From: Torpedo marmorata
Lineage: Eukaryota
Assembly: GCA_977017645.1 (NCBI GenBank)
Contig: OZ360225.1
Location: 59,706,001-59,770,000 of the forward strand
DNA: 64,000 nt
Direction of reading: 5' to 3'
Shown: positions 285-54,999 of the stretch, piece after piece
How positions within the stretch are numbered: the stretch's first letter is position 1
Layout: every line of letters begins with the position of its first letter
Notes under the pieces: model-generated
The model's database searches: none
The model's input: the letters and a program-made list of their open reading frames with translations, nothing else
Told to the model about the DNA's origin: nothing
Translations under genes and position numbers: made by a program

Positions 285-611
285 TGTAGTGGGCCGAGCA
301 GCCTCGCGGTTAGACGAGCCGAATTGCCGCCCCAGTCGGTCAGCACAAGATGGCATGGGCCCCCCTTCCCTTCTCAGGAGAAGCCTGCATTTAGCGACGC
401 GCATTGCCTAGGGGACGTCACCGCGCTGGGCAGGCAGTGGCTCCACAGCGTACTGACGTCACTTCCTGGCACCGACGCGCCGGGCTTCTGGTAATGCGTC
501 GTCCCAAGACAAGCAGCACGAGCTATTCAAATAATAAAAGACTTACTGGTTCACCCTCCAACCGTGTGGACAAACTTTATTTCGATAGCGCTGCCGTTTG
601 CAGCCGCTACA
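285..611 (+). repeat. 5' LTR of Gypsy element 1
   Basis: TGTAG...CTACA; direct repeat of 4489-4815; AATAAA near 533. Confidence 0.95.
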
Positions 612-612
612 G

Positions 613-626
613 TGGTGATCCCGACG
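613..626 (+). promoter_or_regulatory. Primer-binding site, tRNA-Trp type
   Basis: TGGTGATCCCGACG just after the LTR; one mismatch to the tRNA-Trp PBS TGGTGACCCCGACG. Confidence 0.8.
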
Positions 627-664
627 GTTCCAACATTTTTGGAACCCACCTCGAGCGCGACAAA

Positions 665-1439
665 ATGCAGAATGCTGCTACCGCTCCAGTCGCAATGGCT
701 GTGACCAATGCTGTGGGCATACATTTGCCGCCCTTCTGGGCCAACCAGCCCAGGAACTGGTTACATCTGCCCGAGTCACAGTTCCATCTCAGAGGCATTG
801 TCTCGAAAGACAACAAGTTCTGGCACATCATCATCACCTTGGACACCGCCACCACAGCCAAAGTAAGCTCCTTCGTGGAAAATCCTCCAATGGAGCGTAA
901 GTACGAACAATTCCGGCGTCTCCTCCTCGACTCCCTGGAGCTCAGCCGGCACGTGCGCGCCGTCCACATCCTAAACATGCAAGGCCTGGGCGATAGAAAC
1001 CCCTCCGAGCTCATGCATGAAATAGTGGCTTTAGCAGACGAGCACACAAACTGTTTCCTGTTGGAGGCCCTGTTCCTCTCCAAGCTACCGGTGCACGTTT
1101 CCTTGGCAATATCGAGAATGGATTTCAGCGTCCTGCACCTGGTAGCCAAGGAAGCAGACAGACCTTTCCGCACCCCGCAGCAGAGCTCCATACACGCGCA
1201 ACCAATCTACGCGTCGGCGCCTCCGGTTCAACCACGTACCAGGGTTTGCCTCCCCGCCGGGTCCACCAGCAATAGCCGCGGCCCAACCGCAGCGCCACGA
1301 GCGCTCAGACAAGCGGAGCGATTACTGTTTCTACCACCGCAGATGGGGCCGTAACGCCCGGCGGTGCGTTCCCCCATGCTCGTACCCCAATGCCAAGTCG
1401 AGCGCGGCGATGGGAAATGAACAGGCCAGCCACCGATAG
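665..1439 (+). pseudogene. gag: Gypsy gag, frameshifted
   Basis: HLPPFWANQPRNW N-terminal motif; C-terminal YCFYHRRWGRNARRCVPPC Cys/His motif lies in a different frame (from ~1323). Confidence 0.85.
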
Positions 1440-4400
1440 TGACCTCGACGGTTGGCACACATAAGGGCCTACTTTATCTAAGGGACCAGCAGACAAGGAG
1501 AGATTTCCTAGTCGACACGGGTGCGGAGATAAGCCTCATCCCGCCGACGTACTTCAAGCTCAAGCACAACGCCAAGGGCCTCCCCCTACAGACAGCCAAC
1601 AATTCTTCCATCCCAAGTTTCGGCACCCGTCTAGTCAAAATCCATGCCGTCGAAACTATTTTCCACTGGGAGTGTACGATTGCGTCCGTTGGACAAGCTC
1701 TACTCGGAGCCGATTTCCTCTGGGCACATGAGCTTTTAGTAGAAATGAACAGGTGGCGTTTGGTCAACGCTACCACGTTCCAGTCGAACCCCCTCACACT
1801 ATGGCAATGTTCCTTTTTGCCATTGGGCATCCACGCTCTAGACAGCTATTAATATGCCCTTTTACTGGCCAGGTACCCGTCACTGTTGGTCCCCAATTTC
1901 CATGACGCTAAGCCAGCACATGGCATGGAGCACCACATCAAAACCACCGGACCACCAGTGTACGCACGGGCATGGCACTTCCCGCAGGACAAACTTCTCC
2001 TAGCCAAGACCGAGTTTGCCGCCATGGAAGAGTTGGGAATTGTCCACCGTTCAAACAGCCCCTGGCGTCCCCGCTTCACATGGTCCAGAAGAACTCCGGC
2101 GGTTGGCGCCTGTGTGGTGACTACAGACGACTCAATGACGTCACGGTCCCCGACAGATATCCCATCCCACACGTCCAAGACTTCGCCACAAGGCTCCAAG
2201 GTTGCCGAATTTTATCCAAGGTGGACTTCGTCAAGGGGTACCATCAGATTCCGGTGCATACCAACGACGTCCAGAAGACGGCCATCATTACACCTTTCGG
2301 CATATTTGAATTCCTCCGAATGCCTTTCGGATTAAAAAACGCAGCCCAGACGTTTCAGCGTCTCATGGACATGGTCGGTAGGGACCTCGAATTCATCTTC
2401 GTCTACCTGGATTATATCCTCATCGCCAGCCCCGACGCCAACACACACAGAACGCAACTGACCCGCCTATTCGACAGGTTGTAGGAGTTCAGACTTACAG
2501 TGAACCCGGCTAAATGCCAATTCGGCCGGGAGACAATAGATTTCCTGGGACAACGTATCACCTGTGAGGGGGCCACGCCCCTTCCGGATAAGGTAGAAGC
2601 CGTCCAGCGTTTCCCTAGACCGAACACTGTCAAAGGCCTACAGGAATTCCTAGGGATGGTGAACTTTTATCATCGTTTCCTCCCAGGAGCAGCCACCCTC
2701 ATGCAACCACTGTTTGACCTCATCAAACTCGGCGACAAGGCGCTCCAGTGGACACACGAGGCCGTTGAAGCATTTCAGGCAACCAAAGCGGCACTGGCGG
2801 AGTCCACGTTTCTGGCTCACCCTGACTCTTCCTCCCCCCTGGCCCTTACAACAGACGCATTGGACAGAGCGGTCGGGGCGGTGCTTGAGCAGTTGGTCGA
2901 TGAGCAGTGGCGCCCCCTGGCCTTCTACAGCAAACATCTCCGAATGCCAGAACTCAAATACAGTGCGTTCGACCGTGAGCTGTTGGTCCTGTACCTGGCA
3001 AATTTACATTTCCGGTACATGTTAGAGGGAAGGGTTTTCATCGCCTACACAGACCACAAGCCACTGACGCATGCACTCAGCAAGGTCTCAGACCCATGGT
3101 CCGCAAGACAACAACGACACATCTCCTACATTTCCGAGTATATTACGGACATTCGCCACATCGCAGGCAAGTCCAACGTGGTGGCCGACGCTCTGTCCAG
3201 ACCGGCCATTTCTGCCACCTCCGGAGGACTCGACGTTGCCCAACTAGCAAAGGACCAGGCGGGGGATGCGGACGTCCAGGCCTACCGGACTGCCATCACC
3301 AGCCTGAAGGTTAGCGATTTCTGTCCTTCGCCGGGGAACCTGACTTTGCTGTGCGACATATCCACAGGTTTCCCCAGACCCATCCTACCCGCGACCTGGT
3401 GACGGCGCGTGTTCGATCAAATTCACGGCTTATCGCACCCTTCGATAAAGTCCATGGTCCGCCTGCTGTCAGACAAGTTCCTGTGGCACGGCCTCCGCCG
3501 CGACGTAACCCTATGGGCTAAGACTTGTTTGGATTGCCAACGCGCCAAAGTACACAGGCACACCAAGGCCCCGCTCCTGAGCTTTGCCCCGATGCAACGC
3601 CGTTTCGACCACGTGCACGTGGACATCGTGGGTCCGCTCCCCGTGAGCCAAGGTATGCTGTATCTATTCACAATAGTCGACTGTTTTACCCGTTGGCCAG
3701 AAGCGGTGCCCCTGCCCACGTGTGACACAGAGACGTGCGCCAGAGCCTTTTTGTCCACTTGATCGCACGTTTCGGCGTCCCGACCCACATCACCTCAGAC
3801 CGAGGAGCCCAGTTCACATCCTCGCTCTGGTCCAACCTGACCAAGTTCTGCGGCAGCCAATTACACCACACCACGGCCTATCATCCTCAGGCAAACGGAC
3901 TTTTCGAACGTTTTCACCGCCATCTGAAAGCAGCCCTGAAAGTTCGACTACAAGGCCCGAACTGGATGAACGAACTCCCATGGGTGCTGTTGGGAATCCG
4001 CACAGCGCCGAAAGAAGACCTACCAGCATCGTCCGCCGAAATAGTTTACGGTTCCCCGCTCACCATCCCGGGGGACATTCACTTCAACCCTCCAGGCCCG
4101 CAACCCAGTGCTTTAGACGTCCTCCACCGCTTGAGGGAGCAGATGGGTAAGCCTAAACCTCTCGCCACCTTCCCGGCACGGTGCTCCGCCCTGCCACGTC
4201 CCTGCGGACCTACAGTCCACCGATTTTGTTTTCGTCCGCAGAGGACAGCAAGGAACACCCCTGCAATGCCCCTTCCAAGGCCCATTCAAGGTACTACATC
4301 GCGACGGCGTCATTTTCACCCTGGACATTGGCGGGCGGCAGGACATGTTTACCATTGACCGCCTCAAGGCAGCACATTTGGACTCAGGTCAGCCGGACCT
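1421..4400 (+). pseudogene. pol: Gypsy pol (protease, RT, RNase H, integrase) broken by stops and frameshifts
   Basis: FLVDTGAEIS protease; WRLCGDYRRLN, MPFGLKNA and VYLDYILI (mutated YLDD) RT; TDALDRAVGAVL and YTDHKPL RNase H; HGLSH..CLDC, VHVDIVGP, ITSDRGAQF, HPQANGLFERF integrase. Confidence 0.95.
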
Positions 4401-4477
4401 ACTGCCCCAAGTCAGACACAGAGGCTGCCCGCCTAAAGAATGTACGGGAACTGGCTCAAAGGGTGGCAGCGATTCTT

Positions 4478-4488
4478 GGGGGGGGTGG
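4478..4488 (+). promoter_or_regulatory. Polypurine tract
   Basis: GGGGGGGGTGG directly before the 3' LTR. Confidence 0.8.
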
Positions 4489-4815
4489 TGTAGCGGGCCG
4501 AGCGGGGGCGCGGTTAGACGAGCTGAATCGCTGCTCCAGTCGGTTGGCACAAGATGGCGCGGGCCCCCCTTCCCTTCTCAGGAGAAGCCCGCGTTTAGCA
4601 ACGCGCGTTGCCTAGGGGATGTCACCACGCTGGGCAGGCAGTGGCTCCACAGCGAGCTGACGTCACTTCCTGGCACCGACATGCCGGGCTTCCGGTAGTG
4701 CGTCGTCCCAAGGCAAGCAGCGCGAGCTATTCAAATAATAAAGGACTTACTGGTTCACCCTCCAACCATGTGAACATATTTTATTTCGATAGTGCTGCCG
4801 TTTGCAGCCGCTACA
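4489..4815 (+). repeat. 3' LTR of Gypsy element 1
   Basis: Direct repeat of 285-611, roughly 10% diverged by eye. Confidence 0.95.
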
Positions 4816-11560: not shown

Positions 11561-11721
11561 TTTTGGTTCCTGAGAGGAGGTGTAGGGACAGGTTGCAAGG
11601 GGTGAGGGGGGGGGGGAGGTGGGGGGTGTACGTTGAGACAGGAATGGCTGGGATAGGATAAGTGAACCAGGAAGTCACGGAGAGAACATTCCCTATGGAA
11701 GACAGAACGGAGTGGAGAGGG

Positions 11722-12345
11722 TGTAGCGACTTCGTCCAATAAAAATAGTCGCTTGGAGGCTAAGTTAGATGTTTGTCTGCGACGCGTTTTCATTCATTTA
11801 CCAACAAAGTCCAAAATGTTCAAAAAACCTTTATTTACATTAGACTTGCAGTAATCTTCAGACTTTAATATAAACATTTCTTGAAATGATGTAAAATAAT
11901 GTAAAAGGATCTAAAACAATGTAAAAAGGTTATAAAAAGTGTTCCAAAAGTATTAAACGGTCGACAGAGATTGTCGACATCTAACTCACCCTCCTCAAGT
12001 TTTCAACTGCAAACTCGCGCGGGGGAACCTCTTTAAAAGAAGATCCCACCCGTGCATGCTCCGTGGCTACACGCGCTGGCCCCGGCTCCAACCGCTCGCC
12101 GCCGGGGCCGAGACAACCGCGCACGCAACCACCCAGTTCATCAGTGCGCATGCGCACTGATGGATACGCCGGCCCCGGCCGAAGCCGCCGCCGCTGGCTA
12201 ACCACGCATGCGCCGCCACGCTCCAGCTCTGCAAGCGGCGGTGGCACTCGCGCGTGCAGCCTTTGGAAGAGGCCCACGGACCCCGGGACACCGCCGGCGC
12301 CCGCGGCCAAAACAACAGGCAAGTAATGAGCCTATGGCTTTTACA
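11722..12345 (-). repeat. 3' LTR of BEL/Pao element
   Basis: TGTA...TACA ends; CpG-rich half; direct repeat of 16743-17366. Confidence 0.95.
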
Positions 12346-12560
12346 CCGGCCCCTAATTATTATAATGAGATGTAACGTCTCTAATAATAATTACATAACT
12401 ATAACATTATAATAACAATAACCATATAACATTCGAACAAATATACAAATCCTTTCTCCTTTCTTCACAAGACCAGAGTTTACCATAACTCTGGATGAAC
12501 AAAACTCTGTAACCTGAAATATACAACAACAAATAAAGTCAGTTTACATTTATCAAAGTT

Positions 12561-12646
12561 CCTCCTTTGTCTTGAAAAGTCTCAATAATTTTTCCAAGTA
12601 ACCAGGAGTTTCTTGAAGTCGAATTATCCATAATAATCACAATGCC
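12561..12646 (-). pseudogene. Remnant of the BEL/Pao integrase C-terminal tail (DUF5641-like)
   Basis: Minus strand translates to GIVIIMDNSTSRNSWLLGKIIETFQDKGG, like the conserved BEL tail GDIVLIVD..PRNSW.LGRI.E.FPDK.G. Confidence 0.7.
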
Positions 12647-12688
12647 TCTCCAAAGTTCTTTTATCTCTATAATCTTCGAGTTAAAACG

Positions 12689-15600
12689 TTAACAAGTAAA
12701 CTTCAAATCTTCCTCAGATAAAATAGATACAGCTTTTCTTTTGAATTTAACACAAGGCACTTCTTCAACATGTTGTTTCACTCCATTTCTTCTTTCAGTA
12801 TTCCACCTCTCATGTGAAGAATCTAAACTCTTAGAACTAGAATTTGAACATCCATCTGATCCCCCCGATTTTAAACAGGTCTGTTCAACCACTCTGGTTT
12901 CCACGGCTCTCTCCTGCAATTCTAAATCCAACCCCGCAACTTTCAATTCGGTCTCAGTTCCTTCCGAGAAATTAATACTTTGATCTGAAGTCAAAATATC
13001 ATGTGTTACATTGATATTTCCATTGTCAATCCTGTTGCGGCAAACTTGAAATGTTTTAATTTCTTCGTCTTGTTTGTTACATTTCTGCAATGCAGTATCA
13101 CATTCTTCCTGCATTGTTAATTGTTTTGTGTTATTAACCAATAACTTGTTCTCTTTCAAAACATTAATCTCTTCCTCCAACCTTTTACATTTTGATAATG
13201 CTGAATCTCTTTCCTTAATAACTGTATTCATTTCTTCAGCAGTTATTCTTTTCTTCCGCTTTCTGACTTTGCGAGTTTTACTTACAATTAAATCTTTCTG
13301 TTTACTGTTTTCTTGATTATCTAATATTTCCAATTCCCCTTTCAACATTTTGTTCTCTGAATTCAATTGCATTAAATTATCATTCACATTATTCTTTATT
13401 CCATCAGCACAATTTTCTGTGTTTTCCAGTTTTACATCACATTGTAATCTTTCTTCGTTAGCTTTGTCTGTTGTAATCTCTGAACTACAAAATCTACATT
13501 CAGATTTGTTTTCAGTCACTTGTTTTATTCCTGTATTGGATTCAATTACACATGAATGATCAATAGTATTATTTGCAACATCTTCTAATACTTCACTTTC
13601 ATCCATTTCTGACGAAATTAATTCCTTCAATGTTGTTTTAAATACCATTGATTTATTTTCACATTGATCTGTTTTCTTTTCTTCAAAAGTGATTTTCTTA
13701 TTCACAGTTTTTTGCTCTTCGCTTAACTCTTCAACTTTCTCAACCGAAATTCTATTAATATTTATCGCCAACTGTTCCTGAGCAATATCATTATTTCTTT
13801 CCAGTGGTCCATTGATTGTCCAACCAAACTTGGTTCTAATAGCGTAAGATCCATTCCTTTTACTCTCTATTACTTCTTTCCGTTCCAAAACCTTTGGCAC
13901 ATCTGAACCAATCAGCATTTCTATCTCAGAATTAATTTCAGGTAAATAAACCTTCCACAGATAAGCTAAATGATGGATATCCCTTTGATGAGGAATATTT
14001 CCTTCATTCACAGGCATAGTCTTCTGAGTATATACACTTGGAAGATCACAACATTTTTTGTCATCCAATCCAGCAACCTCTAAGCCTGAAACAATGTTAG
14101 TTTCAACAACCTTTTCTTGTCCCATTGTTCTTAACATAATTCTTGATCTTCTTCCTTGAATATTAAGTTTATTCATTAGTCCTTCCGTGCAAAAGGATGC
14201 AGTGCTGCCTGGGTCTAAAAATGCATATGTTTTTACTATTACATCCCCCTTCTTGGCCTTGACTTGTACAGGCACTATTGAAAGTTTGCAGTTATTCACA
14301 CCGGCCCCAGTAAGACCACTTGTCTGAACCGAGGTTATAACATTATTTTCTGTTGTTTCCTTTTCCAATTCCTTGTTTCTGTAATGGATATGCAAAATTC
14401 TAGGATGTTTCAAATTGCATATGTTACAATTAATTCGCTTCTCGCAGTTCTTACTGATGTGTCCTTTACACAAACAGCTAAAACATATTCCATTTTCCTT
14501 TAAGAAAGCGATCTTTTCCTTATGTTCCTTCTTTTCCAATCGTAAACACATTTCCAAAGTATGTCCACCCTTGCAGAACAAACAACTCTTTTTATCAGGC
14601 AAACTTTCCTTTTCCTTATTTACTTTGTCATTTTCTTTACTTATAACTGACACATTAGTAGCAAAAGTACTCCTTTTTACTTTCGGACTAGACTGTGTGT
14701 TAGACTTCTTTACATCTTTGCCCATTGAATTATCTCTGCCATTTCCATATAGTGGATCTGTTTCAACGTACACCCGTCGTTCAAGAAAATTTACCAAATC
14801 CTTTAAGGTACTCTTTCGACCGTAATCTACTTGTAAATCACAAGCCAAATTTCTCCATCTATCCCATAACTTGTAAGGTAATTTTTCTAAGATGATTCGC
14901 ATATTACTATGCACTTCAAGCTCACGAATATTATCGATTTCTTCCATAGCATTACAACATCCTCTTAAAAACAGAGTATATTCTAGCAGAGCCTTTACAT
15001 CATTTTGTTTTATTGATGTCCAATTAAGAGCTTTATCCATATAAGCTAAAGCGATTTGATGCTTGTTGCCAAAATATTGTTCCAGTAAAGCCTTAGCTTT
15101 GTCTAATCCTCTTTCTGAAGACATTTGTTTACAACTCTTTACCAGTTCTTTTGGATGTCCCTTTGTGAACATTTCCAAATAATAAAGACATTCATCACGA
15201 TCTTGACATTTATCTTCAATATTGCGTTTGAAAGATCTCATAAATGATTGATATTGAAGTGGATCACCATCAAAGGTTTGTATCTCTTTTTTGGGTAAAG
15301 AAGAGAGAGACTGTAACTGAAACAATGATGCAGCAATTTCATTTTGTCTTTCCTTGGATGACAATACATTGCTCTGTTCACTGTTTCTTGTTGCATGCAA
15401 TGTATCTGGAAACCTCACTGGTATAGTTTCTTCCATATTTCTGATTCTTGACTCAAATAACGAAGAAGCTGCTTCGTTCGACCGAACCCAAGCCGCAGCC
15501 TTATCTTCAGATGTTACCATTGGTACATGTGACTCGTTACCAATATGCTCTTGATAGGTTTGTCTTTGTATTTGCAAATCTTGTATCCTTGGTTCTACAA

Positions 15601-16363
15601 TATCTATCCTTTTGGTTGGTTTCTTTTCCTGTGACTCTTTTTTTAAATATGACCTTTTATTATCAGACACTTTAGATAATTTACTTCGAGCACCAAATAC
15701 TAATGAGCCTTCTATTGCTTTCTTTTCTGCCTTGGCAATAGCAATGTTTGCTTCCAGCTCCTGCTGTTCCTTTTTCTTTCTTAGCTGCTCTTGTCTCTTT
15801 CTTAGTTGTTGGTTCAGCCTCAGCTGCTCCTCCTTTAGTTCCTCCTCCTGTTCTTCTAAAACATGTTTATCCTTAAGAAATTCTTGTTGTGCAAGAAGAG
15901 CGGCCAATCTAACATCAATCTTTGTAGGTGACGATGCAGAACTTGAAGTACGAGAAACTCTGGAGCTCGAACCAGAACTTCTTTTGCTTCTCCTGCTTTC
16001 AGCATTTGAGACACTGTCACTTGCTTGTATTTCGTCCTGCAGTTCATATGCTGTCTTCATACTTACCTCTTTATCCAATTCGAATTGTATATCCTTTGCA
16101 TCATTTGTTGACACAATTTCAGCCATTTCCAAGTTATCTTCTTGTTCATTTAATGAAGCTGCCTCTTCATCCTTTGCCAGCTTCAGTCTTTCGATAAGAA
16201 CCCTTTTATTTCCTCTTATGTCCTTTTTCAGTCGCTTCAATTCTTCTTTAATATCCGTAACCTTCATGTCTTCAATACGTTGGTCCACAACAGCAACATC
16301 AGCGGTTGCTGCGTCAGCTGCTGATATATCAGTAGCTGCTGTATCAGAGGCTGCTGCTGCCAT
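12689..16363 (-). CDS. BEL/Pao Gag-protease polyprotein with N-terminal SAP domain and atypical coiled-coil C-terminal insert; no RT, RNase H or integrase
   Basis: Uninterrupted ORF (probable ATG at 16363; open frame extends to 16402). SAP-like IEDMKVTDIKEELKRLKKDIRGNKRVLIERL; capsid-like FDGDPLQY (DUF1759-type); three Cys/His knuckles CLFCKGGH, CFSCLCKGH, CNICNLKH; protease AFLDPGSTASF; YAIRTKFGWTINGP. Confidence 0.9.
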   Translation of the reverse strand: MAAAASDTAATDISAADAATADVAVVDQRIEDMKVTDIKEELKRLKKDIRGNKRVLIERLKLAKDEEAASLNEQEDNLEMAEIVSTNDAKDIQFELDKEVSMKTAYELQDEIQASDSVSNAESRRSKRSSGSSSRVSRTSSSASSPTKIDVRLAALLAQQEFLKDKHVLEEQEEELKEEQLRLNQQLRKRQEQLRKKKEQQELEANIAIAKAEKKAIEGSLVFGARSKLSKVSDNKRSYLKKESQEKKPTKRIDIVEPRIQDLQIQRQTYQEHIGNESHVPMVTSEDKAAAWVRSNEAASSLFESRIRNMEETIPVRFPDTLHATRNSEQSNVLSSKERQNEIAASLFQLQSLSSLPKKEIQTFDGDPLQYQSFMRSFKRNIEDKCQDRDECLYYLEMFTKGHPKELVKSCKQMSSERGLDKAKALLEQYFGNKHQIALAYMDKALNWTSIKQNDVKALLEYTLFLRGCCNAMEEIDNIRELEVHSNMRIILEKLPYKLWDRWRNLACDLQVDYGRKSTLKDLVNFLERRVYVETDPLYGNGRDNSMGKDVKKSNTQSSPKVKRSTFATNVSVISKENDKVNKEKESLPDKKSCLFCKGGHTLEMCLRLEKKEHKEKIAFLKENGICFSCLCKGHISKNCEKRINCNICNLKHPRILHIHYRNKELEKETTENNVITSVQTSGLTGAGVNNCKLSIVPVQVKAKKGDVIVKTYAFLDPGSTASFCTEGLMNKLNIQGRRSRIMLRTMGQEKVVETNIVSGLEVAGLDDKKCCDLPSVYTQKTMPVNEGNIPHQRDIHHLAYLWKVYLPEINSEIEMLIGSDVPKVLERKEVIESKRNGSYAIRTKFGWTINGPLERNNDIAQEQLAININRISVEKVEELSEEQKTVNKKITFEEKKTDQCENKSMVFKTTLKELISSEMDESEVLEDVANNTIDHSCVIESNTGIKQVTENKSECRFCSSEITTDKANEERLQCDVKLENTENCADGIKNNVNDNLMQLNSENKMLKGELEILDNQENSKQKDLIVSKTRKVRKRKKRITAEEMNTVIKERDSALSKCKRLEEEINVLKENKLLVNNTKQLTMQEECDTALQKCNKQDEEIKTFQVCRNRIDNGNINVTHDILTSDQSINFSEGTETELKVAGLDLELQERAVETRVVEQTCLKSGGSDGCSNSSSKSLDSSHERWNTERRNGVKQHVEEVPCVKFKRKAVSILSEEDLKFTC

Positions 16364-16742
16364 TTTACTCGTCTTGTTCCTCTTTCCTTCAAGCATACAC
16401 AATACCAGCCAAACAACAGTCCCTAATGGACTAGCGGCAGCAATTCCAATCTGTGTTCTTACTTACTAAAGATACACAGAAGGAGTCCACAGACTTATGC
16501 CAACCACTTCAAATGACTGTAATGTGCTGCAATCCACAAACGAGTTTTTTATCTTCTTTCCTTCTATTTTCTGTTCCAAACAGCCAGCTCTTTGTTGACT
16601 ATGTAGATTGCGGTGACTTCGATCCAACGTTGGTCACCTGGAGGCTAAGTGTGGTCCTTATGTATCTGGAAACCTCACTGACCCTCCTGGCTTCTCCTTC
16701 CTATCCTATTTTCCATTTCAGCGACCTTTCCTGTCGACTTAA

Positions 16743-17366
16743 TGTAGCGACTTCATCCAATAAAAATAGTCGCTTGGAGGCTAAGTTAGGTGTTTGTCTG
16801 CGACGCGTTTTCATTCATTTACCAACAAAGTCCAAAATGTTCAAAAAACCTTTATTTACATTAGACTTGCAGTAATCTTCAGACTTTAATATAAACATTT
16901 CTTGAAATGATGTAAAATAATGTAAAAGGATCTAAAACAATGCAAAAAGGTTATAAAAAGTGTTCCAAAAGTATTAAACGGTCGACAGAGATTGTCGACA
17001 TCTAACTCACCCTCCTCAGGTTTTCAACTGCCGACTCGCGCGGGGGAACCTCTTTAAAAGATTATCCCACCCGCGCATGCTCCGTGGCTACACGCGCTGG
17101 CCCCGGCTCCAACCGCTCGCCGCCGGGGCCGAGACAACCGCGCACGTAACGACCCAGTTCATCAGTGCGCATGCGCACTGATGGATACGCCGGCTCCGGC
17201 TGAAGCCGCCGCCGCTGGCTAACCACGCATGCGCCGCCACGCTCCAGCTCTGCAAGCGGTGGCGGCACTCGCGCGTGCAGTCTTTGGAAGAGGCCCACGG
17301 ACCCCGGGACACCGCCGGCGCCCGCAGCCAAAACAACAGGCAAGTAATGAGCCTATGGCTCTTACA
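16743..17366 (-). repeat. 5' LTR of BEL/Pao element
   Basis: Direct repeat of 11722-12345. Confidence 0.95.
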
Positions 17367-17499
17367 GAGGGGAAGATGCAACGTGGTGGGATCGCTTTGC
17401 AGCTGGTAGAAATGATGATGTGCAGGGTGTGGAGGATGGTGGGGTGAAAGGTAATGACTGAGGAAACTCTACCTCTAGTGGGAGGTCCTCATCTCGATA

Positions 17500-24980: not shown

Positions 24981-25732
24981 ATCTTTTTGGGAAAGGAAGA
25001 AGCATAAGAGTCTTGTTGTCCTTTGATAATTATTCTACGTGCCAGACTATGCCAACACTTTTATCACACACCTTGTGTTTACAAGTCACTATAAGAGTCC
25101 TGCCAAATATTTTTGGAAGGATCGCACTCCTTTAAAAATAAATTAAAGATCTGTTATATTTCTCTTCATTTCCATCTCTTAGCTCAAACCATGCTAACCT
25201 ACAGAAGTACCAGGCATGGGCCAATAAGTGCAAGGTCCAAATAAGTGCCAAGCAATCACCATCTCCAATAGGAAGCAGTCAAAGCTCTGATGCTGACACA
25301 CCATCAGATCTGTAACCAGATTCACCACCGTTTTTAGTTACTGCTGGGACAAATGGGTCACAGTGGTCAGCAACTCAAATGGACTCAAATAACTTCATCT
25401 GATCTATTTAAGTTATTTGGTGATATCTTATTTAAAATTAAATGAATAATATTAACAGGAGATTATGAAGTCTCTAAAAGTCTCTAAATTCTGAGTCTTG
25501 ATTGTCTCAATTTTGTTGGTCTGGATTTTCCTCCCCCATTGTTTGAATTCTGAGACTTTCTGATATATCCTGCTTCTGCCTTTTCTGATTTTTCCTTGAA
25601 GAAAGGCTCAGGCCCGAAACGTCGGCAATATATCTTTGTCTCCTATTGATGCTGGAAAGACCGGTTGAGTTCCTCCAGCATTTCGGTGTGTTTACTATAA
25701 TCAAAGTGTAGCCTATCATGTTTCACTCAGTT

Positions 25733-26474
25733 CAGATTTCAGATCAGCTTTCAGATTTATTGTCAGAGTACATACATACGTCACATACAACCCTGAGATT
25801 CTTTTTCCTGTGAGCGCAGCAGAATTACCACTAATTGGTAGTGCAAAAAGTAAACTGTACACAGTGTTAACATGTAAACAATCAAAAGACCTGCTAACAG
25901 GTAACGAATGAAACTGAAAATGGAACTGACTGTGCAATACAGAGAGAGCAAAGAAAATCAATAAAGTGCACGAGTAAGAGTCCTTAAATGAGTCTCTGAT
26001 TTGACTTTGTCGTTGAGGATTCTGATGGTAGAGGGGTAGCAGCTGTTCCTAAACCTGGTTGTGTGAGTCATGTGGCACCTATACCTCTCTCCTGATGGCA
26101 GCAGTGAGAACAGAGCGTGCGCTGGGTGGTGTGGGTCTTTGATGATTGCTGCTGCCCTCCGACAGCAGTGTTCCCTGTAGATGTACTCAATAGTGGGGAG
26201 GGTTTTGCCAGTAATGTCCTGGGCTGTGTCCACTACCTTTTGGAGGGCTTTACGCTCAGGGGTATTGGTGTTCCCATATCAGACCGTGATGCAGCCGGTC
26301 AGCATACTTTCCACCACACATCTGCAGAAATTTGCCAGGGTTTCTGGTGTCATACCAAACCTCTGCAAGCTCCTGAGGAAGTAGAGGCGCTGACGTGCTT
26401 TCTTCATGATGCCAATGGTGTGTTGGGTCCAGGAAAGATCCTCCGAGATAGTGACTCCCAAGAACCTAAATTTG
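25733..26474 (-). mobile_element. Rex1/Babar-like LINE 3' fragment nested in the PLE
   Basis: FRFLGVTISEDLSW...KARQRLYFLR; DPHHPAHALFSLLPSG; TSD CTCAGTT (25726-25732, 26475-26481); CTGAA-type tail repeats. Confidence 0.85.
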
Positions 26475-26507
26475 CTCAGTTGATCCACTTCGTAATCTCT
26501 TCAAGGG

Positions 26508-29500
26508 ATGCCTGCCCTGAAGAAGTTCTCCTCCTCTCTTCGAAGGGAGTTCTGTGTGAGTCTCTCTCACTGCTCCCCATCTGTACTGCCTGATGCTCTC
26601 AAGCTCTACGACCACATTCTCACCCAGACTCGCTTCCACAGCCATGTGTCTTTCCTGGCTACTTGCCTCCACCGCCATCTGGTGCCACATGGATTCCAGT
26701 TTGGTTCCTAGCCTTCCAGTTTGGCCCCCACCGGGATCTCAGGTACCTGAGCTGCATTGACTCTTGCTCTCTTCGCTTCTCCCGCCGTATACTACGGACT
26801 ACCCTCAGCTCGATGCGCAGGTACCAACGGACCCTCGCTCTCTCGCTACCACAGCTCCGTACCTCACTCACCATGATCTGCCACGGACCTCTCATACACT
26901 TCATCCTCCGCCAGATCCACGCATTCAAACGCTGATTCTACGCACACCTGGCATCCATCAAGGATCGGAAGCTCGTGTCCCTGGAGACTGTCGCATCGAG
27001 GACCCCCCACCTGGGTTTACAGGACCGAGCTCCTGATGCGGGTCTCTACCTTTGCCCCGGTGACCTACAGCACGGAGCGCCTGACACGGGTGTCCACCTT
27101 GGCCTCGGTGACCTTCAGGATCAAGCCTCCGACATGAACTTTCACCCTGAACCCGCTGGCCACGAGTCTGGGCTTCACACGCGGGTCTCCATTTCGGCCC
27201 CAGCGACCTACAGGATCGAGCCTCCGACATGAACTTTCACCCTGAACTCGGCGACCGACAGAACTGAGCTTCAGACGCGGTTTCCACCTTGGCCCCTTCG
27301 ACCAACAAGACCAAGTGTCCGTCACAAACTCCCACCCTGGCTCCGGGAGCAAACAGGCCTCTCTCTCTCCACCCTCTAACTTTCCCAATCCTCCCCATCC
27401 TCCCTTGGACCCTTCCTACCCTCCACCTCCTGATCCACCCCATCCTCCTCCCCTCCCCTACACCCTCCACCCCATTGAACATCCCCCTAACCCCTGCCTG
27501 GTCTTCACCATCACCTCCGACCTCCCCCTCTCGGAGACTGAACACTCTGTCCTCAGTAAAGGCCTCACCTTCGTCTCCCTTCATCCACACCTTAACGAGT
27601 TCCACGCATGCCATGATGTTGAACTCTTCTTCCATCGGCTCTGTCTCCATGCTTACTTCCATAATCATGATTCTCCACCCCCCACTACAGATCCCTTCTC
27701 CCGCTTTAAAACATCTTCCTCCTCCTGGACACCTCGTTCCGATCTTCTACCTGCTCTGGACCTTTATATTTCCAACTGCCACCGTGACATCAACCTTATC
27801 GAGTTCACTACTCCCCTCACTCATTCCAATCTCACCCCCTCGGAACGCCTGGCCCTCCACTCTCTCCACACCAATCTGAACTTCACCCTCAAACCTGCAG
27901 ACAAGGGTGGCGCTGTTGTGGTCTGGCGCACTGACCTCTATCTGGCTGAAGCCAGACGACAACTCTCAGACACCTCCTCTTACTTAGCCCTCCAACAGGA
28001 CCCCACCAAACTCATCAAACCACTGTATCACGCACCATCTCTGAACTCATCACTTCCAGTCACCTCCCTGGCACGGCCTCCAACCTTATTGTTTCCCAAA
28101 CCCATACTGTCCATTTCTACCTCCTACCCCAGATCCACAAACCCAACTGTCCCGGCAGACCCTACGTGTCCGTGTGCTCCTGCCCCACCGAATTGGTTTC
28201 TGCTTACCTTGACTCTGTTTTGTCCCCCCTGGTCCAGTCCCTCCCCACCTACATCTGGGACACTTCACATGCATTCCATCACTTCAACAACTTCAAGTTC
28301 CCTGAACTCGATTGCCTCATATTTACCATGGATATACAATCCCTATACACCTCTATCCCCCATACTGAAGGCCTCAAAGCCCTTCCTTTCTTTCTGGACA
28401 ATAGAACCAACCAGTCCCCCTCCACCACCACCCTCCTCCGGCTGGCACAACTTGTCCTCACCCTCAATCATTTCTCCTTTGACTCATCCCACACTCTCCA
28501 GGTCACAGGGGTAGCCATGTGCACCCGCATGGGCCCCAGCTATGTCTGCCTTTTTGTTGGCTACGTGGAGCAATCCATGCTGCAAGCCTACACAGGCAAG
28601 GCCCCTCAACTCTTCCTCCACTACATCGATGACTACTTTGGTGCTGCCTCATGTACCCATGATGAGCTCGTTGACTTCATCCACTTCGCTACCAACTTCC
28701 ACCCCGACCTCAAATTCACTTGGTCCATCTCTAGCAATACTCTCCCTTTCCTCGATCTCTCTGTCTCCATCTCAGGAGACAAACTCTCGACAGACATCTT
28801 CTATAAACCCACCAACTCCCACAGTTACCTCGACTACACCTCTTCCCACCCTGTCCCCTGTAAGGATTCCATTCCATTCTCTCAAATTCCTCCATCTCTG
28901 TCGCATCTGCACCCAGGATGAGGACTTCCATGCCAGATCATCAGAGATGTCCTCCTTCTTCAAACAATGTGGCTTTCCCTCTACCACCATCAACTCGGCA
29001 CTCACCCGCATATCCTCCATTACCCGCACATCTGCCCTGGCCCCCTCCGCCCCCATGTGCAACAAGGACAGGATTCCTCTTGTCCTCACCTACCACTCCA
29101 CCAGCCTCCACATCCAACGCATCCTCCTCCGCCATTTCCGCCACCTACTACGTGATCCCACCACTAGACACATATTCCCCTCTCCTCCCCTCTCCGCCTT
29201 CCGCAGGGACCCCTCTCTCCGTGACTCCCTTGTCCACTTCTCCCTCCCCACCAATCGTCCCCTTGGGACCTACCCCTGTGACGGCAGGAGATGCTCCATT
29301 TGCAACCACACCTCCTCCCTCAGCACCATTCGGAGCCCCAAACAGTCTTTCCAAGTGAAGCAACATTTCACTTGTGAATCTGCAGGGGTCAGCTACTGCA
29401 TTCGGTTCTCCCGCTGTGGTCTCCTCGACATCGGAGAGACTGGACGCAGACTGGGAGATTGCTTTGTTGAGCACCTCGGCTCTGTCTGCCACAATAGCGT

Positions 29501-29682
29501 GGATCTCCCAGTGGCCACCCATTTCAATTTCTCCATCCCATTGCCTTGCTGACATGTCTATCCATGGTCTCATGTACTGCCAGACTGAGACCACCCGTAA
29601 ATTGGAGGAACAACACCTCATCTTCCGACTGGGCACCCTCCAACCGGATGGCATTAATATCGACCTCTCTGGCTTTCGTTAA
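26508..29682 (+). pseudogene. PLE ORF (RT and GIY-YIG endonuclease), frameshifted
   Basis: VLSKGLTF, KPADKGGAVVV, MDIQSLYTSIP, GVAMCTRMGP, YIDDYF, PFLDL, YKPT; YCIRFSRCGLLDIGETGRRL GIY-YIG. Confidence 0.9.
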
Positions 29683-31949
29683 AACCCCCCCCCACCCCCT
29701 TCTTCCCCCGTCGTCTCTCCATTCCCTGTCTCCTTTCGCACAGACATGATTAATTCTACCTAGTCCCTTATCATAGCCAATTAACACCTTTTGTTGGTCT
29801 GGATTCCTCCCCCATTTTTGAATTCTGAGACTTTCTGATATATCCTGCTTCTGCCTTTTCTGATTTTTCCTTGAAGGAGGGCTTAGGCCCGAAACGTGGG
29901 CAATATATCTTTGTCTCCTATAGATGCTGAAAAGACCGGCTGAGTTCCTCCAGCATTTTGGTGCGTTTGTCTCAATTTACACACCAGTTAACTAATTTAC
30001 TGATAAAATATTTTCTTAAATCGCCTGGTCTGCAAGGGAAAGCGTAATGGAGTAAAAATTAGGTAAAAAAAAAGGTAAAGGTTCCATTATTGTCACGTAA
30101 TACTACATTTAGAATGTAACATACATGAAATTCTTTAATTTTTGTCTACTGTAAGGCAGACAGAGTCTCTGTTACTTTCACGAAATACACCCCTTTCTTG
30201 AAGTGTCCAGTAATTAAAGTAGAACAGAGCACTCAAATTGGGGTATGATACTCAACCATTACTATATTTAAAGCAAGTAGTCAAGAATAAATTCTTTCTT
30301 CTGTGTTCTTTGTGGTGAATGTTAACTTCCTGGCTCCCGAAAGCTTTACCCAGCACTTATTGTCACATGTACCAAAATAAAGTGAAAAGTTGTGCTTTTC
30401 ATGCTATCCAGGCAAGTTAACCTGTACCAGTACAAAAGGTAGTGTGAGAATAAAATTAAAGGTGCAGGAGATAGTGTTACAATAAAAAAAAAGGTGCAAG
30501 ATATAGTGCCACAAGACAAAAGGCAGAATATAGTGCTAAAGAGAAAAATACAGTTGAACAAGGCAAGGCATCATCCTGTACTAATGAAAAGTCTGTTCGA
30601 CCTCCTATCCTTGAATCTGGAGGTGCGTGTTATCAAACTCATGTATATCAGCAAGGCACCAGTTATAGAATATATAACCATATAACATTTACAGCACAGA
30701 AACAATGTGCAGAGAAACTCACCAACCGCCTGATGAGAGCACTTGCTAAAACCTTCGTGGTTTTACGTTATCTGAGATGTAGCAATTTGTTTGATTTGCA
30801 CCTCAGCCTCTTCACAGGGGAAGGAGAAAAGATTTATTATAGAAAGCACTGATGCAATACACCAAGCTCTTCCCTCCTTTATCATTGGCTGGGAGGACCA
30901 GCATGGAAGTCAATGGAACTGAATTTTAGAAACAGGGCTCAACACGAGTACAGGACTATTTTTTAAGATTAGCATGCCCAACAGAGGACGAATTTCACCC
31001 TCACTGTTTCCATGGGGAGTGGGTAATGAAAGAACACAGATTTAAGATGAATGAGAAAAGAACTTGGAAAAGAATCCAAGATAGGGAGTGAGAAGAAATC
31101 TTTCTAAGCTTAGAGCCGTTCAATCTGGAATCCACTGCTTGAAAATGTAGTGGAAGCTGTTTCAACAGTCACTTTCAAAAGGGAATGGGATATATACCAG
31201 AAAAAGATAAGTGCAGAGTGCGCGAGAAAGGGGATGTGATGAGTTAGACGAATTGGATGGGCATAAGGTGCTGAATGGCTTGTGTTATAAGAGTTCATTC
31301 AATAAAGGAGTACCAGAAACAAGATGGGGGAGAATGTAAAATGTATGTGAAGAAAGACTTTCCTTTTCCTGTGGTGAAGGATTTTAAAAGCCTGAAGATA
31401 TTTATAAACTCAGATGTTCCTGCACAAATTAATTAGCAAGATTAGTTGACTCAAGGGTTGTGGTTGAGGGAGATCTGTGATGCCCCTGGTGCTATATGTT
31501 GGTGATTGTTGTAAATGCTTTACATATTCACACATCATGTGAATAAATCAAACCAGTTGAAAATAATCTTGATGCAAAACTTTAATCGTGATGATGGATC
31601 TCTCAGTCACTTCGTTGGTGCATGTGGTAGTCCTGTCCCTGATTGTTTTCATTGTGTACAGTCTTCCTGTGGGTTGTACAGGTTTATGAAATTATCCCTG
31701 CAATGGTAAGGATTCATTAAAGGATTTACCATGCAATTTCTTCCTCAAGTGCATAGAATTATAGAACCTCATATCATGAAAGGCTGAGCCAGTTCTTTGA
31801 AAGCGCTTCGATTTGAATCCACACCCACGTTTCTTACTCATCTTAATGCAAATGAGTCATCTTCAAACATGAGCCTGTTACCTTTGGAAACCAATTTCAT
31901 CACCCTTTCTTTCATATGGTTCATTCCAGGACATAACAACCCTCTAGAT

Positions 31950-42958: not shown

Positions 42959-43423
42959 AAAACAACATCTATAAGCTAATTTTATTGTGGAACACAGGTT
43001 CGCCAGTCAGATCTGATATCCAGAGATCTTCAAATCCTTAGACCCACAGTTTTTATATATGGGCTCCATATTTTCAAAAATAAATGATATTTGTTACGTA
43101 AATTATAAGTAATTTTTTCAAGTGGTATACATGAACGAAGTTCTGCATGCCATCTTTCTAACCCTAAATCTACATCAGATTTCCATGTAATAGCAATGCA
43201 TTTCTTTGAAACAGCTAAAGCAATTCGCAAAAATTCTATTTGATACATATTTAATCTCATTTTAATAAAAATTCTTTTAATATCTCCAAACAACAATATC
43301 ATAGGATCCATTGGGAGTGTAATTCTTAATACTTTATCTAAAAACTTTTTAACTTTCAACCAGAAATCATATATCTTTGGACAGAGCCACGTAGAGTGTA
43401 CAAAAGAACCGTCCTCTCTATTA

Positions 43424-44723
43424 AAAAACACAAATGCTGGAGAAACTCAGCAGGTCAAACAATGTCTTTTATGTAGCAAAGGTAGAAATACATAACCGAC
43501 GTTTCGGGCTTGAGCCCTTCATCAAAGTATGAGAAAATGCCGGTAGGCGTCCGAACAAAAGAGTGAGGGGGGAAGGGGGATGGCAAAGGCAGGAGATGAT
43601 AGGTGGAGAAAGGAGGGAGGGGACAGCAGCAAAGAGGGGGAGGAGGGATGGCTAGGTAGCTGGAGAAAAACAGGAAGGACAGGTGAGGGGGGAGGGGGAG
43701 GGGAAGGGAACGACAAGCAGGTTTAGTGGAAAGCAGAAAAGTCAATGTTAATGCCATCTGGCTGGAGAGTGCCGAGACGGAATATGAGATGTTGTTCCTC
43801 CAATTTGCGGGTAGTCTGGGTGGGATAGTACATGAGGCCATGGACAGACATGTGAGTGTGGGAGTGTGACCCGGAATTGAAATGGTTGGCTACTGGGAGG
43901 TCGCTGTTGTTGCGAACGGAGAGGAGGTGCTCAGCAAAGCAGTCTCCCAATCTACGACCGGTCTCTCCAATGTAGAGAAAGCCACAAATGGAGCACCGGA
44001 TGCAGTAAATAAGTTCTCTGGATGTACAAGTGAAGTGTAGTTTCACTTGGAAAGCCTGTTTGGGGCCCTTGACCGTGGTTTGGGGGGAGGTGTGGGTGCA
44101 GGTGTTGCACCTCCTGCGGGCACAGAGGAAGGTGCCGGGGGTGCGATGGGTGGGGAGGGATGAGTGCACGAGTGCTTTGCTGAGCACCTCCTCTCCGTCC
44201 GCAACAACAGCAACCTCCCAGTAGCCAACCATTTCAATTCCGGGTCACACTCCCACACTCACATGTCTGTCCATGGCCTCATGTACTATCCCACCCAGAC
44301 TACCCGCAAATTGGAGGAACAACATCTCATATTCCGTCTCGGCACTCTCCAGCCAGATGGCATTAACATTGACTTTTCTGCTTTCCACTAAACCTGCTTG
44401 TCGTTCCCTTCCCCTCCCCCCTCACCTGTCCTTCCTGTTTTTTTCCAGCTACCTAGCCATCCCTCCTCCCCCTCTTTGCTGCTGTCCCCTCCCTCCTTTC
44501 TCCACCTATCATCTACTGCCTTTGCCATCCCCCTTCCCCCCTCACTCTTTTGTTCGAACGCCTACCGGCATTTTCTCATACTTTGATGAAGGGCTCAAGC
44601 CCGAAACATCGGTTATGTATTTCTACCTTTGCTACATAAAAGACACTGTTTGACCTGCTGAGTTTCTCCAGCATTTGTGTTTTTTACTTCAACCACAGTG
44701 TCCACAGATTTTCGTGTTTTACT
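43424..44723. mobile_element. Inverted pair of PLE 3' ends inserted as one unit
   Basis: Arms 43424-43941 and 44173-44686 are near-perfect reverse complements; 12-bp TSD TCCTCTCTATTA (43412-43423, 44724-44735); GIY-YIG YCIRCSICGFLYIGETGRRL on minus. Confidence 0.92.
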
Positions 44724-52390: not shown

Positions 52391-54710
52391 GATCATTTTG
52401 TAGTATAGTCCTTGATGTTCTGTTACCAATAAAGGCAGTCAATTTGTGCACGGCAAGCTGACACAACAGTGAAATTATTTAATCTGTTTTTATGTCATTA
52501 GCTGAGGAATAAATGTGAAGGAAAACAAGGTAGACAATTGTCCTTATTATAATTTGGTGCTTTTTTAAATATAGCTCGAGTAATATTTACTGAAATAGCT
52601 ACAGAGAGTACAAAGGGTCCCTCTCAAAGAAGCTAACATTAATTGGCACGCTGTAGATAGCAGTAAGAAAAAACTCCAACTGCATCCAATTCCAATATAA
52701 ACAAGGTGGCATTAAGTTGGATTCAGTTACTGCAGTATAAATACATCCTTAAGTGACTGTATATAAAACAATATAACAAAGACTGAATGTAACACAATAA
52801 GAGTAATGCTTACTGTTAGTAAAACAATAACATCAGCGACATTAATAATATAACACAATGTTATATCACAGTGTGCAATTCAACATGGTGGACATACCAG
52901 AGATTGAAAGAGAATAATTACAGCTAAGGAATATAATATTAAGAGACTGAATAAAATAACAAAAGGTTATAATATAGTAGAATGTGTTTGCCAAACAGTA
53001 ACTAATATTTGTTCCATGATGTGATTATACATTGTGATAGACAGTATCATGTAATGACTGTGATATATTGTATAAATATTATTTTGTAATAGTTTTCAAT
53101 CATTATGCAAATACATGATTCCTTTGGTGACTCACCTTGACAAGGAAAAGAATAGCTAAGAGTGAAAAATAGAAATGTCCGGCATTGACCCCTGGTTGAT
53201 ATCATGCTGGGAAGCCACAATTGACAATAGCATCCCTACTCTCAGGAAATCTTTTCTGCTTGGGATTCGTCCTCCTAATCACCTTCTGCTAACTACAGCT
53301 GCAAATATGTATGTGGCTATTGGATGGGAACAGAGCTGGGACTCAGCAGTGGGAGTGCCGCACTTGAATAGCCCCCAGACAATCATTGCCCAAGATCACA
53401 AATGGAAAATGAAAGTCCACTGAGGCAAGTAACCCAAAGGTGATTGGTACCAATGAATGAAGTTAAAGGAGAGGAGTGAAGTGAGGGGAGGGGTTGGTGG
53501 GATAGGTTGATGGATGATGAAGGTAAACACATACCAGATTCCAATCTCCATATTTGAATGAATGAATGTTCATAGTTATATACATAAATACTATGTACAG
53601 ATGCAATTAAAGTCCTACTTGCTGCAGCTTTCCAGTTATGCAAAACACACTAACAACAATTTAAGTACAACTAAGATGCCATAAAAATGAAAAAGTAGAT
53701 AATGAATATAATAGAAATAAATAGTAAATGTTCACATTTGGCTGGATAAGCAAAAATTGTACTGCGTCAGTAGGTCAGTCAAATCTTTGGTGGTCTTGTA
53801 CTAGTGTTATTGTTCGGATGATGTAGGGAGATTCAAGATCCTAATAGGTGTTAAACAGAAAAACTGTTGCATGCAAAGATAATAAAGCCTCCGTGAGTGT
53901 CCATCATGTCTCTCAGAAGTTACTGGTCATTTTATTGGTCACTGTCAAAGCACATGCCTACACTTCCCTTGACTCTGTGGCAGTTTCCTGAGTAAATACT
54001 GATGCAAAATCCCCAGTTAAGATCTCTTTTATCTTTTCTAGCTCCATACATAGCCAACCTCTCTGATCTTTAAAAGGGCCAATTTTGTCCCTGTAGAAAC
54101 CCTTAGGATTTTCCTTCACATTGTCTGCCAAAGCAACCTCATGTCTTATTTTAGCCTTCCTTATTACCTTCTTGAGTTTTTTCTTGCATTTGTTATACTC
54201 CACAAGTACCTCATTTGCTCCTTGTTGCCTATATCTGCTATACACCTCTCTTCTTCTTAACCAGATCTCCAATATCCCTTGAAAACCAAGGTTCCTTATG
54301 CCTACTAACTTTGCCTTTAATCCTTACAGGGACATACAAACTCTGTACTCTCAAAATTTCGCCTTTAAAGGCCTTCCACTTACCCAACATATCCTTGCCA
54401 GAAAACAACTTAGCCCAATCCACACTTTCTAGATCCTTTATCATTTCCTCAAAATTGGCCTTTCTCCAATTTAGAATCTTAACCCGAGGACCAGACCTAT
54501 CCTTATCCATAATTAAATTGAAACTAATGTCATTATTGTGTTATTATGCAAACTACATTTCCCAGTAGGCAATGCGCACGGTTTGCATGGGAACAAAAGT
54601 AGACTACGACAGACGTCGAGTGCGTTGTTGGTTCAAGCAGATCGAAAAATAAAGTTGTTTAAGTGTTAAAACTACGCATGGTTGTTCTTCTTCAAGGAAC
54701 AAACATACCA

Positions 54711-54724
54711 TGGTGTCAGAAGTG
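54711..54724 (+). promoter_or_regulatory. Primer-binding site, tRNA-Leu type
   Basis: TGGTGTCAGAAGTG directly after the 5' LTR. Confidence 0.75.
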
Positions 54725-54768
54725 TGTGAGTAAGTAAGAAAAGGCAATAGTTCCCATATAGATATTTA

Positions 54769-54980
54769 AATGTCTCCTGCCTTTCCCACCCCCCTTCCCC
54801 CCTCACTCCTTTGTTCGGACGTCTGCCGGCATTTTCTCATACTTTGATGAAGGGCTCAAGCCTGAAACGTCGGTTATGTATTTCTACCTTTGCTACATAA
54901 AAGACACTGTTTGACCTGCTGAGTTCTCCAGCTTTTGTGTTTTTTACTTCTACCACGGTGTCTACAGATTTTCGTGTTTA
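54769..54980 (+). mobile_element. Short PLE 3' tail inserted at the start of Gypsy-2 gag
   Basis: Near identical to 44510-44720; 16-bp TSD CCCATATAGATATTTA (54753-54768, 54981-54996). Confidence 0.9.
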
Positions 54981-54999
54981 CCCATATAGATATTTATTC

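Follow-up and report, generated by a model that had tools for sequence, protein, structure and literature searches.

Transduction of cellular mRNA by retroviruses and LTR elements is well established, with the v-onc genes and the maize element Bs1 as examples, and captures of this type typically cripple the element concerned. SAP domains are known as accessory modules in other transposons: they occur in Zisupton DNA transposons and Chlamys Penelope-like elements, which belong to other element classes, carry the domain outside Gag and have no host donor gene identified in the accessible part of the source (PMC8557442). A model that works alike is foamy virus Gag, which tethers itself to chromatin through its own signal; this signal is unrelated in sequence, lies in a C-terminal GR-rich region and is given no indication of host origin in the sections available (PMC7828637). 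Nuclear entry and target choice of BEL/Pao elements are little known. The available text of a survey of these elements does not contain 'SAP' and contains 'PhD' in a reference only (PMC3118150), and a PHD finger is mentioned for Ginger transposons only (PMC2836005). No report of SAP in a BEL/Pao Gag or of SLTM capture was found in the literature searched, with Repbase entries, most subscription journals and supplements outside its scope. The source of accessory chromatin domains in transposons can usually not be named because of their age. In the case described here, a single genome contains the donor, the edges of the captured piece, the intron-less join and the ladder of subfamilies descended from it, so that gain of a Gag domain and its retuning can be traced stepwise. 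Thus, SAP in other transposons and mRNA capture by LTR elements are known, and an SLTM-derived SAP in a BEL/Pao Gag, with an unusually complete record, is apparently new.

The window is a stretch of 64,000 nucleotides from Torpedo marmorata (contig OZ360225.1, positions 59,706,001 to 59,770,000) and contains the following element, given in window coordinates.

11722..17366, minus strand: BEL/Pao LTR element of a pol-less (non-autonomous) family, 5,645 bp, recognized by its LTR pair and target duplication
11717-11721 and 17367-17371: 5-bp target duplication GAGGG, flanking the element
16743..17366, minus strand: 5' LTR, 624 bp, TG...CA, 606/624 identical to the 3' LTR
16364..16394, minus strand: remnant of the SLTM 5' UTR, upstream border approximate
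12689..16363, minus strand: single unbroken ORF of 1,224 aa (P0001), start at 16363
16277..16363, minus strand: Ala-rich leader, residues 1-29, corresponding to the host SLTM N-terminus including the SLTM start codon
16181..16276, minus strand: SAP core, residues 30-61, from SLTM exon 1, 19/32 identical to host SLTM
16162..16177, minus strand: place of 16 nt from SLTM exon 2, fused intron-less to exon 1; the captured block ends here
14852..15274, minus strand: DUF1759, the capsid-like region of BEL/Pao Gag, residues 364-504, 24.6 bits, slightly below the cut-off of 25.4
14390..14584, minus strand: three Cys/His zinc knuckles, residues 594-658
13784..14281, minus strand: aspartic protease region, weak Pfam Asp_protease_2 match (E 0.13), FLDPGS at 715-720
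12689..13714, minus strand: tail of about 340 residues, at the place of the RT-RNase H-integrase of full-length relatives
11722..12345, minus strand: 3' LTR, 624 bp, TG...CA

P0001 runs in the order leader, SAP, Ser-rich/coiled coil, capsid-like region, three zinc knuckles, protease and tail. Ala makes up 12 of the 29 leader residues, and the leader is about 12 codons longer in young families than the SLTM N-terminus. The TG...CA LTRs, the 5-bp duplication and a DUF1759 region, three knuckles and protease in one ORF mark membership of BEL/Pao, and in trees P0001 nests among polyproteins that bear a Pao peptidase. No Pfam match to RT, RNase H or integrase was found in the P0001 ORF; the element is BEL/Pao by structure but lacks autonomy, pol being absent. 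Fish members of this group (Belpaoviridae; P0004, P0006 and P0013) share the TG...CA LTRs, the 5-bp duplication, the single gag-pro(-pol) ORF and the three knuckles, with 45-54% identity over Gag-protease; they differ in having another N-terminal domain and no SAP, and in that the window family, not they, is without pol. Within the tail, residues 1030-1125 look like coiled coil and are, as we presume, reminiscent of MIPOL1; ESM Atlas ranks a MIPOL1 cluster fourth (0.94) amid generic coiled-coil matches. The tail (12689-13714) is possibly a second host capture. The sequence past the 5' LTR (16743-16710) is without the initial TGG of the usual tRNA primer site, and a purine-rich run precedes the 3' LTR.

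The first-pass annotation had proposed a SAP domain of helix-loop-helix pattern at the Gag N-terminus, over 16163-16363. The ORF from 16363 reads as quoted there, and that span is all but identical to the coding part of the host-derived block, 16162-16363. The Pfam SAP profile (PF02037) matches residues 30-61 of whole P0001 with 25.7 bits (E 8.4e-6) and the first 78 residues on their own with 30.1 bits (E 3.7e-7), both above the curated cut-off of 23.9. Among solved structures, the best sequence matches of the P0001 N-terminus are SAP domains (MKL1 2kvu, E 2.7e-4), and a 16-sequence profile matches 1zrj (E 2.9e-11), 2kvu (4.7e-10) and 2do1 (2.2e-6). A chance coiled-coil match is ruled out by the Pfam score, by these structure-profile matches and by the DNA match to host SLTM described below. 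As to the fold, an AlphaFold model made with an alignment has the proposed helix-loop-helix (helices 13-22 and 31-49, pLDDT 85.9), whereas the single-sequence fold of the window's 44 residues, run for the window form alone, is one continuous helix (pLDDT 96.6). The best structural matches of the aligned model include SAP structures at Z 6.5-7.1; 1zrj (Z 7.1, rmsd 2.2, 46 aligned) shares its Z with two non-SAP rows and stays below the tool's caution level of 8. A homolog search with residues 20-240 gave one match, with the SAP outside the matched part, and residues 1-230 gave only leads below 0.8 in ESM Atlas.

At the residue level, G51, K53, L56, R59, L60 and the hydrophobic positions of helix 1 are invariant across 16 aligned subfamily sequences. 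With SAFB2 residue numbers projected by our own mapping from the residues named in PMC9958909, the window SAP keeps K53, has R at 54 (S in SAFB2) and has R45 and L47 replaced. In the young full-length and pol-less families, R45 has become Leu, Lys (or Arg) replaces the hydrophobic residue at loop position 47, and Glu stands at position 31; between host SLTM and the window, the core does not differ in net charge (+4). By profile and descent, the domain is a SAP, for which the helix-loop-helix fold and DNA binding of this variant are putative.

The Gag SAP was donated by the SLTM gene of the host itself. A profile built from BEL SAP sequences retrieves vertebrate SLTM and SAFB1 among 10 matches. 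In the genome, a direct search with an N-terminal stretch of SAFB returned an overwhelming number of BEL copies; a degenerate pattern for the start of the SLTM/SAFB SAP yielded six places and its reversed control none. The BEL leader is present at all six and Gag behind it at four, and over 38-40 residues five share 71-84% identity with teleost SLTM. This pattern did not pick up the host SLTM exon, which was reached via the RRM exons of the gene on contig C68 (81-85% to teleost SLTM P0199). L122, 27 kb upstream of the RRM exons, contains exon 1 and the beginning of exon 2, with a GT..AG intron of 1,184 nt between them. Because the host SLTM N-terminus reads MAAVVAAAAGVAAEARCITDLRV, the Ala-rich leader and start codon of Gag are also those of SLTM. 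Host exon 1 matches the old-subfamily copy L070 at 167/190 nt, from 38 nt before the ATG, and the window itself retains 69% DNA identity over 75 nt (E 0.004). The SAP core of another old copy, L140, is identical to host SLTM at 29/32 residues and to host SAFB at 21/32, and host SAFB exon 1 gave no DNA match over its SAP exon. Of the earlier likeness to SAFB/SLTM, the SLTM half therefore stood and the SAFB half did not, and the suggested host capture was demonstrated at the DNA level by the exon 1 match in L070 and the missing intron. SAFB as donor is ruled out by the old copies; the window sequence alone cannot discriminate (scores of 86 versus 80-87). Two further observations concern these loci: older BEL copies of the SAP lineage (L133 and L134, on contig C68) lie at most 130 kb upstream of the donor SLTM gene, and two SAFB-type paralogues sit about 1 Mb apart on contig C54.

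Both edges of the host-derived block are sharp. In 20/20 old copies, chosen by likeness to L070 (19) or SAFB (1) and representing one event rather than independent ones, the match to host SLTM starts at the same base, L122:2443 (38 nt before the ATG), with 81-90% DNA identity over exon 1. The 16 nt past exon 1 agree with SLTM exon 2 at 16/16 positions in 16 copies, 15/16 in three and 12/16 in one, as against 5-6/16 for the intron. Similarity drops sharply outside the block, to 0-2/8 for the next 8 nt versus exon 2 and 3-5/16 for the 16 nt upstream. The captured portion comprises 38 nt of UTR, exon 1 and 16 nt of exon 2, only about 55 codons, with the RRM and the ER-rich region not included. 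Host SLTM was the source and the element the recipient, since a teleost SLTM shares the conserved exon and only the host copy contains the intron. Uptake of a spliced mRNA is the simplest and likely reading; deletion of the intron at the DNA level is compatible with the sequence as well, because exon 1 and the intron share the end AAACAG(G), a 6-7-nt repeat at the intron borders.

It is nearly certain that a BEL/Pao lineage captured SLTM. Compared with vertebrate SLTM (of the SAFB family, which comprises SAFB1, SAFB2 and SLTM), the old subfamilies have the same UTR remnant, start codon, Ala-rich leader and SAP at 81-90% DNA identity, whereas the Gag piece of about 55 codons lacks the RRM and ER-rich region, heads Gag and goes down to 19/32 identity. 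As in v-onc genes and Bs1, intron-less host sequence lies inside an LTR element; unlike in those cases, the SLTM piece has become the established N-terminus of elements that are full-length and have long open frames and nearly identical LTRs. Such a flow from host to transposon runs opposite to domestication, and SLTM is itself a member of a transposon-repressing family.

The captured SAP is not particular to the window element and is common to a large number of BEL subfamilies in this genome. Searching the 6.2-Gb genome with a 601-nt probe yielded 2,260 candidates at first look, of which 40 were scored, with 98-100% identity, and 20/20 fetched copies of the window family have the same tail instead of pol. 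When 20 loci were picked by Pao RNase H (11 for long open frames, and 9 others), SAP and leader were found upstream in 17, and the three without SAP seem 5'-incomplete in the fetched stretch. All 11 long-frame loci have the SAP, frames of 2,018-2,134 codons and LTR pairs 97-100% identical; their DNA identity to the window over gag-pro is 90-92%, and relatives with long pol frames in general share 87-94% over this part. Of the 30 top-scoring Pfam-SAP loci genome-wide, 29 belong to the N-termini of BEL Gags from several subfamilies; the remaining one is a host gene that we take to be hnRNP-U-like. The genome-wide SAP search returned 29,045 SAP-bearing BEL candidates at first look, which is not a copy number. 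The SAP is thus a trait of a whole BEL lineage in this genome, full-length elements included, and the pol-less window family inherited the module from full-length relatives. This family, whose capsid has a within-family dN/dS of 0.25, likely supplies its own Gag and borrows Pol.

The subfamilies form a ladder, along which SAP-core identity to host SLTM declines from 29/32 (L140) through 26/32 and 23/32 to 19/32 (window). DNA alignment of natural stretches traces the same path, and 13/14 nt ending in the ATG are still host-like in the window. In intermediate subfamilies, the changes led to different residues that are still compatible with a SAP, and these subfamilies reach 50-58 bits when the genome is searched with the Pfam profile. 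A capsid-region tree places the host-like subfamily on short branches beside SAP-less relatives and the window family at the ladder tip, with support of 99/97, 100/99 and 100/100 up to the young full-length and pol-less families; in the same tree, two rows of intermediate group AB fall among the outgroup, and a single clade of all 41 SAP-bearing rows has only 57/40. By this tree, the SAP-bearing lineage evolved fast after the capture. The capture took place shortly before the spread of the old subfamily, because the net dS between host and old subfamily is 0.12. Protein segments of the old host-like subfamily (L140, L142, L158) are 64-86% identical to the database BEL protein P0004, compared with 64% for the young family, and in the capsid tree this subfamily lies on short branches next to P0004; horizontal arrival of BEL shortly before the capture is possible.

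Outside this genome, the 27 closest database relatives of P0001 (25-58% identity, the named ones from bony fishes) have no SAP (0/27), and the domain is not ancestral among them, a point on which the annotation had made its idea of a capture depend. An N-terminal SAP is present in 13 of 177 relatives (ENA/Logan proteins such as P0177, P0156 and P0138), 10 of them strong and 3 weak by local profile; by Pfam, nine of these distant Gags are over the cut-off, three are under it, and for one SAP is absent among the five families shown. Gag-protease trees were built from 117 of the 177 rows and from 42 rows, excluding rows with fewer than 400 aligned residues or fewer than 150 residues of N-terminus. 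They place P0001 inside SAP-less proteins under several well-supported nodes and 12 of the 13 SAP-bearing relatives in a separate clade; a constraint joining the distant SAP Gags with P0001 was rejected (p-AU 3e-9, for a group defined after the first tree had been viewed). The distant Gags thus share the N-terminal SAP with the window lineage but differ in this placement and in that their SAPs show no clear preference for SLTM. Their SAPs arose separately from that of the window lineage, and the presence of an N-terminal SAP in another BEL clade suggests that such elements have benefited from the domain more than once. Two other origins, a SAP ancestral to the whole BEL clade and acquisition from the other SAP-bearing BEL clade, are ruled out by the DNA match to the host together with the trees.

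The annotation had also named a PHD finger as the usual N-terminal accessory of BEL/Pao, which does not hold for this clade: a simple regular expression for a PHD-like Cys/His pattern found 0/119 among relatives whose N-terminus extends 150 residues or more ahead of the capsid region, as against the 13 with SAP. SAP-less relatives have a different N-terminal domain of about 130 residues that is absent from the SAP lineage, and the corresponding domain of SAP-less P0004, used as a single query, was found in 0/46 genome candidates. The captured SLTM piece has taken the place of the former front end of Gag.

For the function of the captured piece, we lean with modest confidence towards the reading that the lineage captured the spliced 5' end of SLTM and that the retained SAP acts as a weak dsDNA or chromatin tether on Gag. 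An ancestor of the BEL/Pao lineage took up the 5' end of the SLTM transcript, intron-less and in frame at the front of gag, presumably when reverse transcriptase switched template onto co-packaged SLTM mRNA. The Gag-borne SAP would bind dsDNA weakly, gain avidity from the many Gag copies per particle and tether Gag, or the particle on its way in, to the chromatin of the host; the element may benefit through retention in the nucleus or through reaching integration targets, and the pol-less window family would borrow RT and integrase in trans. In the accessible part of the report on SAFB2, its SAP binds dsDNA only, with micromolar affinity and a slight AT preference; K53A/S54A abolishes binding, S31A weakens it and R45A unfolds the domain (PMC9958909). 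Against a tether stand the replacement of R45 and L47, Glu at position 31 in the young families and the single-helix fold predicted from the window sequence alone. Doubtful, in our estimate, is the wider proposal that the retrotransposon took the DNA-binding domain of its own repressor and uses it as a tether or decoy, that this drove its expansion, that SAP was recruited independently at least twice, and that Belpaoviridae possess an unrecognised chromatin step.

Gag is a packaging protein, and the same captured SAP might instead serve assembly and genome packaging as a general nucleic-acid or RNA-binding (chaperone) module, which we consider unlikely. The young families gained Lys or Arg in the loop and at 54 and lost R45 and L47, as expected of a drift to non-specific binding, and nucleic-acid preference differs among some SAP domains according to the available sections of PMC9958909; yet the three zinc knuckles are intact, the net charge of the core is unchanged from host to window, and the same sections report no binding of single-stranded DNA by the SAFB2 SAP.

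The block may alternatively have been kept for structure or translation, as the source of a start codon, of a 5' UTR from the host and of an N-terminal cap that is compact or helical, with DNA binding decayed at least in the young families. The UTR beside the ATG, still 13/14 identical to the host, would fit this idea, as would the lack of the ~130-residue N-terminal domain of SAP-less relatives, the one-helix prediction and the loss of R45 and L47. Conservation of G51, K53, L56, R59, L60 and the helix-1 hydrophobic positions in all 16 aligned subfamily sequences, and the move of intermediate subfamilies to SAP-compatible residues, argue the other way and make this explanation improbable.

The idea of a counter-defence decoy, in which the Gag SAP competes or pairs with host SAFB/SLTM and so blunts transposon repression, was considered because L1 is repressed by SAFB, SAFB2 and SLTM, and so are LTR elements in mouse and fly, as stated in the accessible part of PMC10901741. 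Possible weak dimerisation of the SAFB2 SAP (in the available text of PMC9958909), the great abundance of SAP-bearing BEL candidates and the fast evolution after capture are in line with it. Repression, however, acts on RNA, and in the sections available complete failure of rescue follows only deletion of the ER-rich C terminus (PMC10901741), whereas the element captured the SAP alone, with neither RRM nor ER region; moreover, a mimic would be expected to stay host-like, yet the SAP drifted from 29/32 to 19/32. A decoy is accordingly quite improbable.

Selection on the SAP codons was assessed with the Nei-Gojobori method, applied pairwise to single natural pieces, allowing for divergence within groups and leaving out L141 (a nested young element), L095 (mis-mapped) and L071 and L072 (truncated). 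Net dN/dS of the SAP is 0.15 [0.08-0.45] between host and young families, 0.18 [0.08-0.61] between host and the window family and 0.24 [0.08-0.66] between old and intermediate subfamilies; dN is biased downwards in groups AB and CD, whose members were selected on SAP score. Intervals of the recent steps span 1, at 0.33 [0.08-1.14] for intermediate to young and 2.67 [0.35-344], with almost no changes, for young to window family. For the SAP, dS approaches saturation, and a shift from GC to A has inflated it (15 CpG in 150 nt of the host, 6 in 195 nt of the window). The SAP dN of 0.27 is similar to the capsid dN of 0.24 and is between one third and one half as large as dS in the capsid (0.81) and protease (0.56), and the adjoining Ser-rich stretch has a dN/dS of about 1. 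These counts point to purifying selection on the SAP codons since the capture. A neutral passenger, caught by chance and carried along by a successful lineage, is already disfavoured and very improbable, since for all the shortness of the domain, the wide recent-branch intervals and the dS inflated by base-composition change, SAP dN equals capsid dN next to a Ser-rich neighbour near 1, and the domain also occurs, in the corresponding position, in an independent BEL clade.

Part of the element (window 15700-16800) also occurs in sequencing runs of eight coded organisms, with no RNA run among those listed. The SAP region is found in many contigs in X1, X2, X6 and X7 and in one or few low-depth contigs in X4, X5, X8 and X9, and the latter may be foreign DNA. 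Elsewhere, the window contains three pairs of long direct repeats about 4.2-4.4 kb apart and 89-93% identical (285-4788, 25534-29968 and 54537-59110), which are likely other LTR elements, and a long inverted repeat at 43422-44686 with arms 98-99% complementary, likely a fold-back structure.
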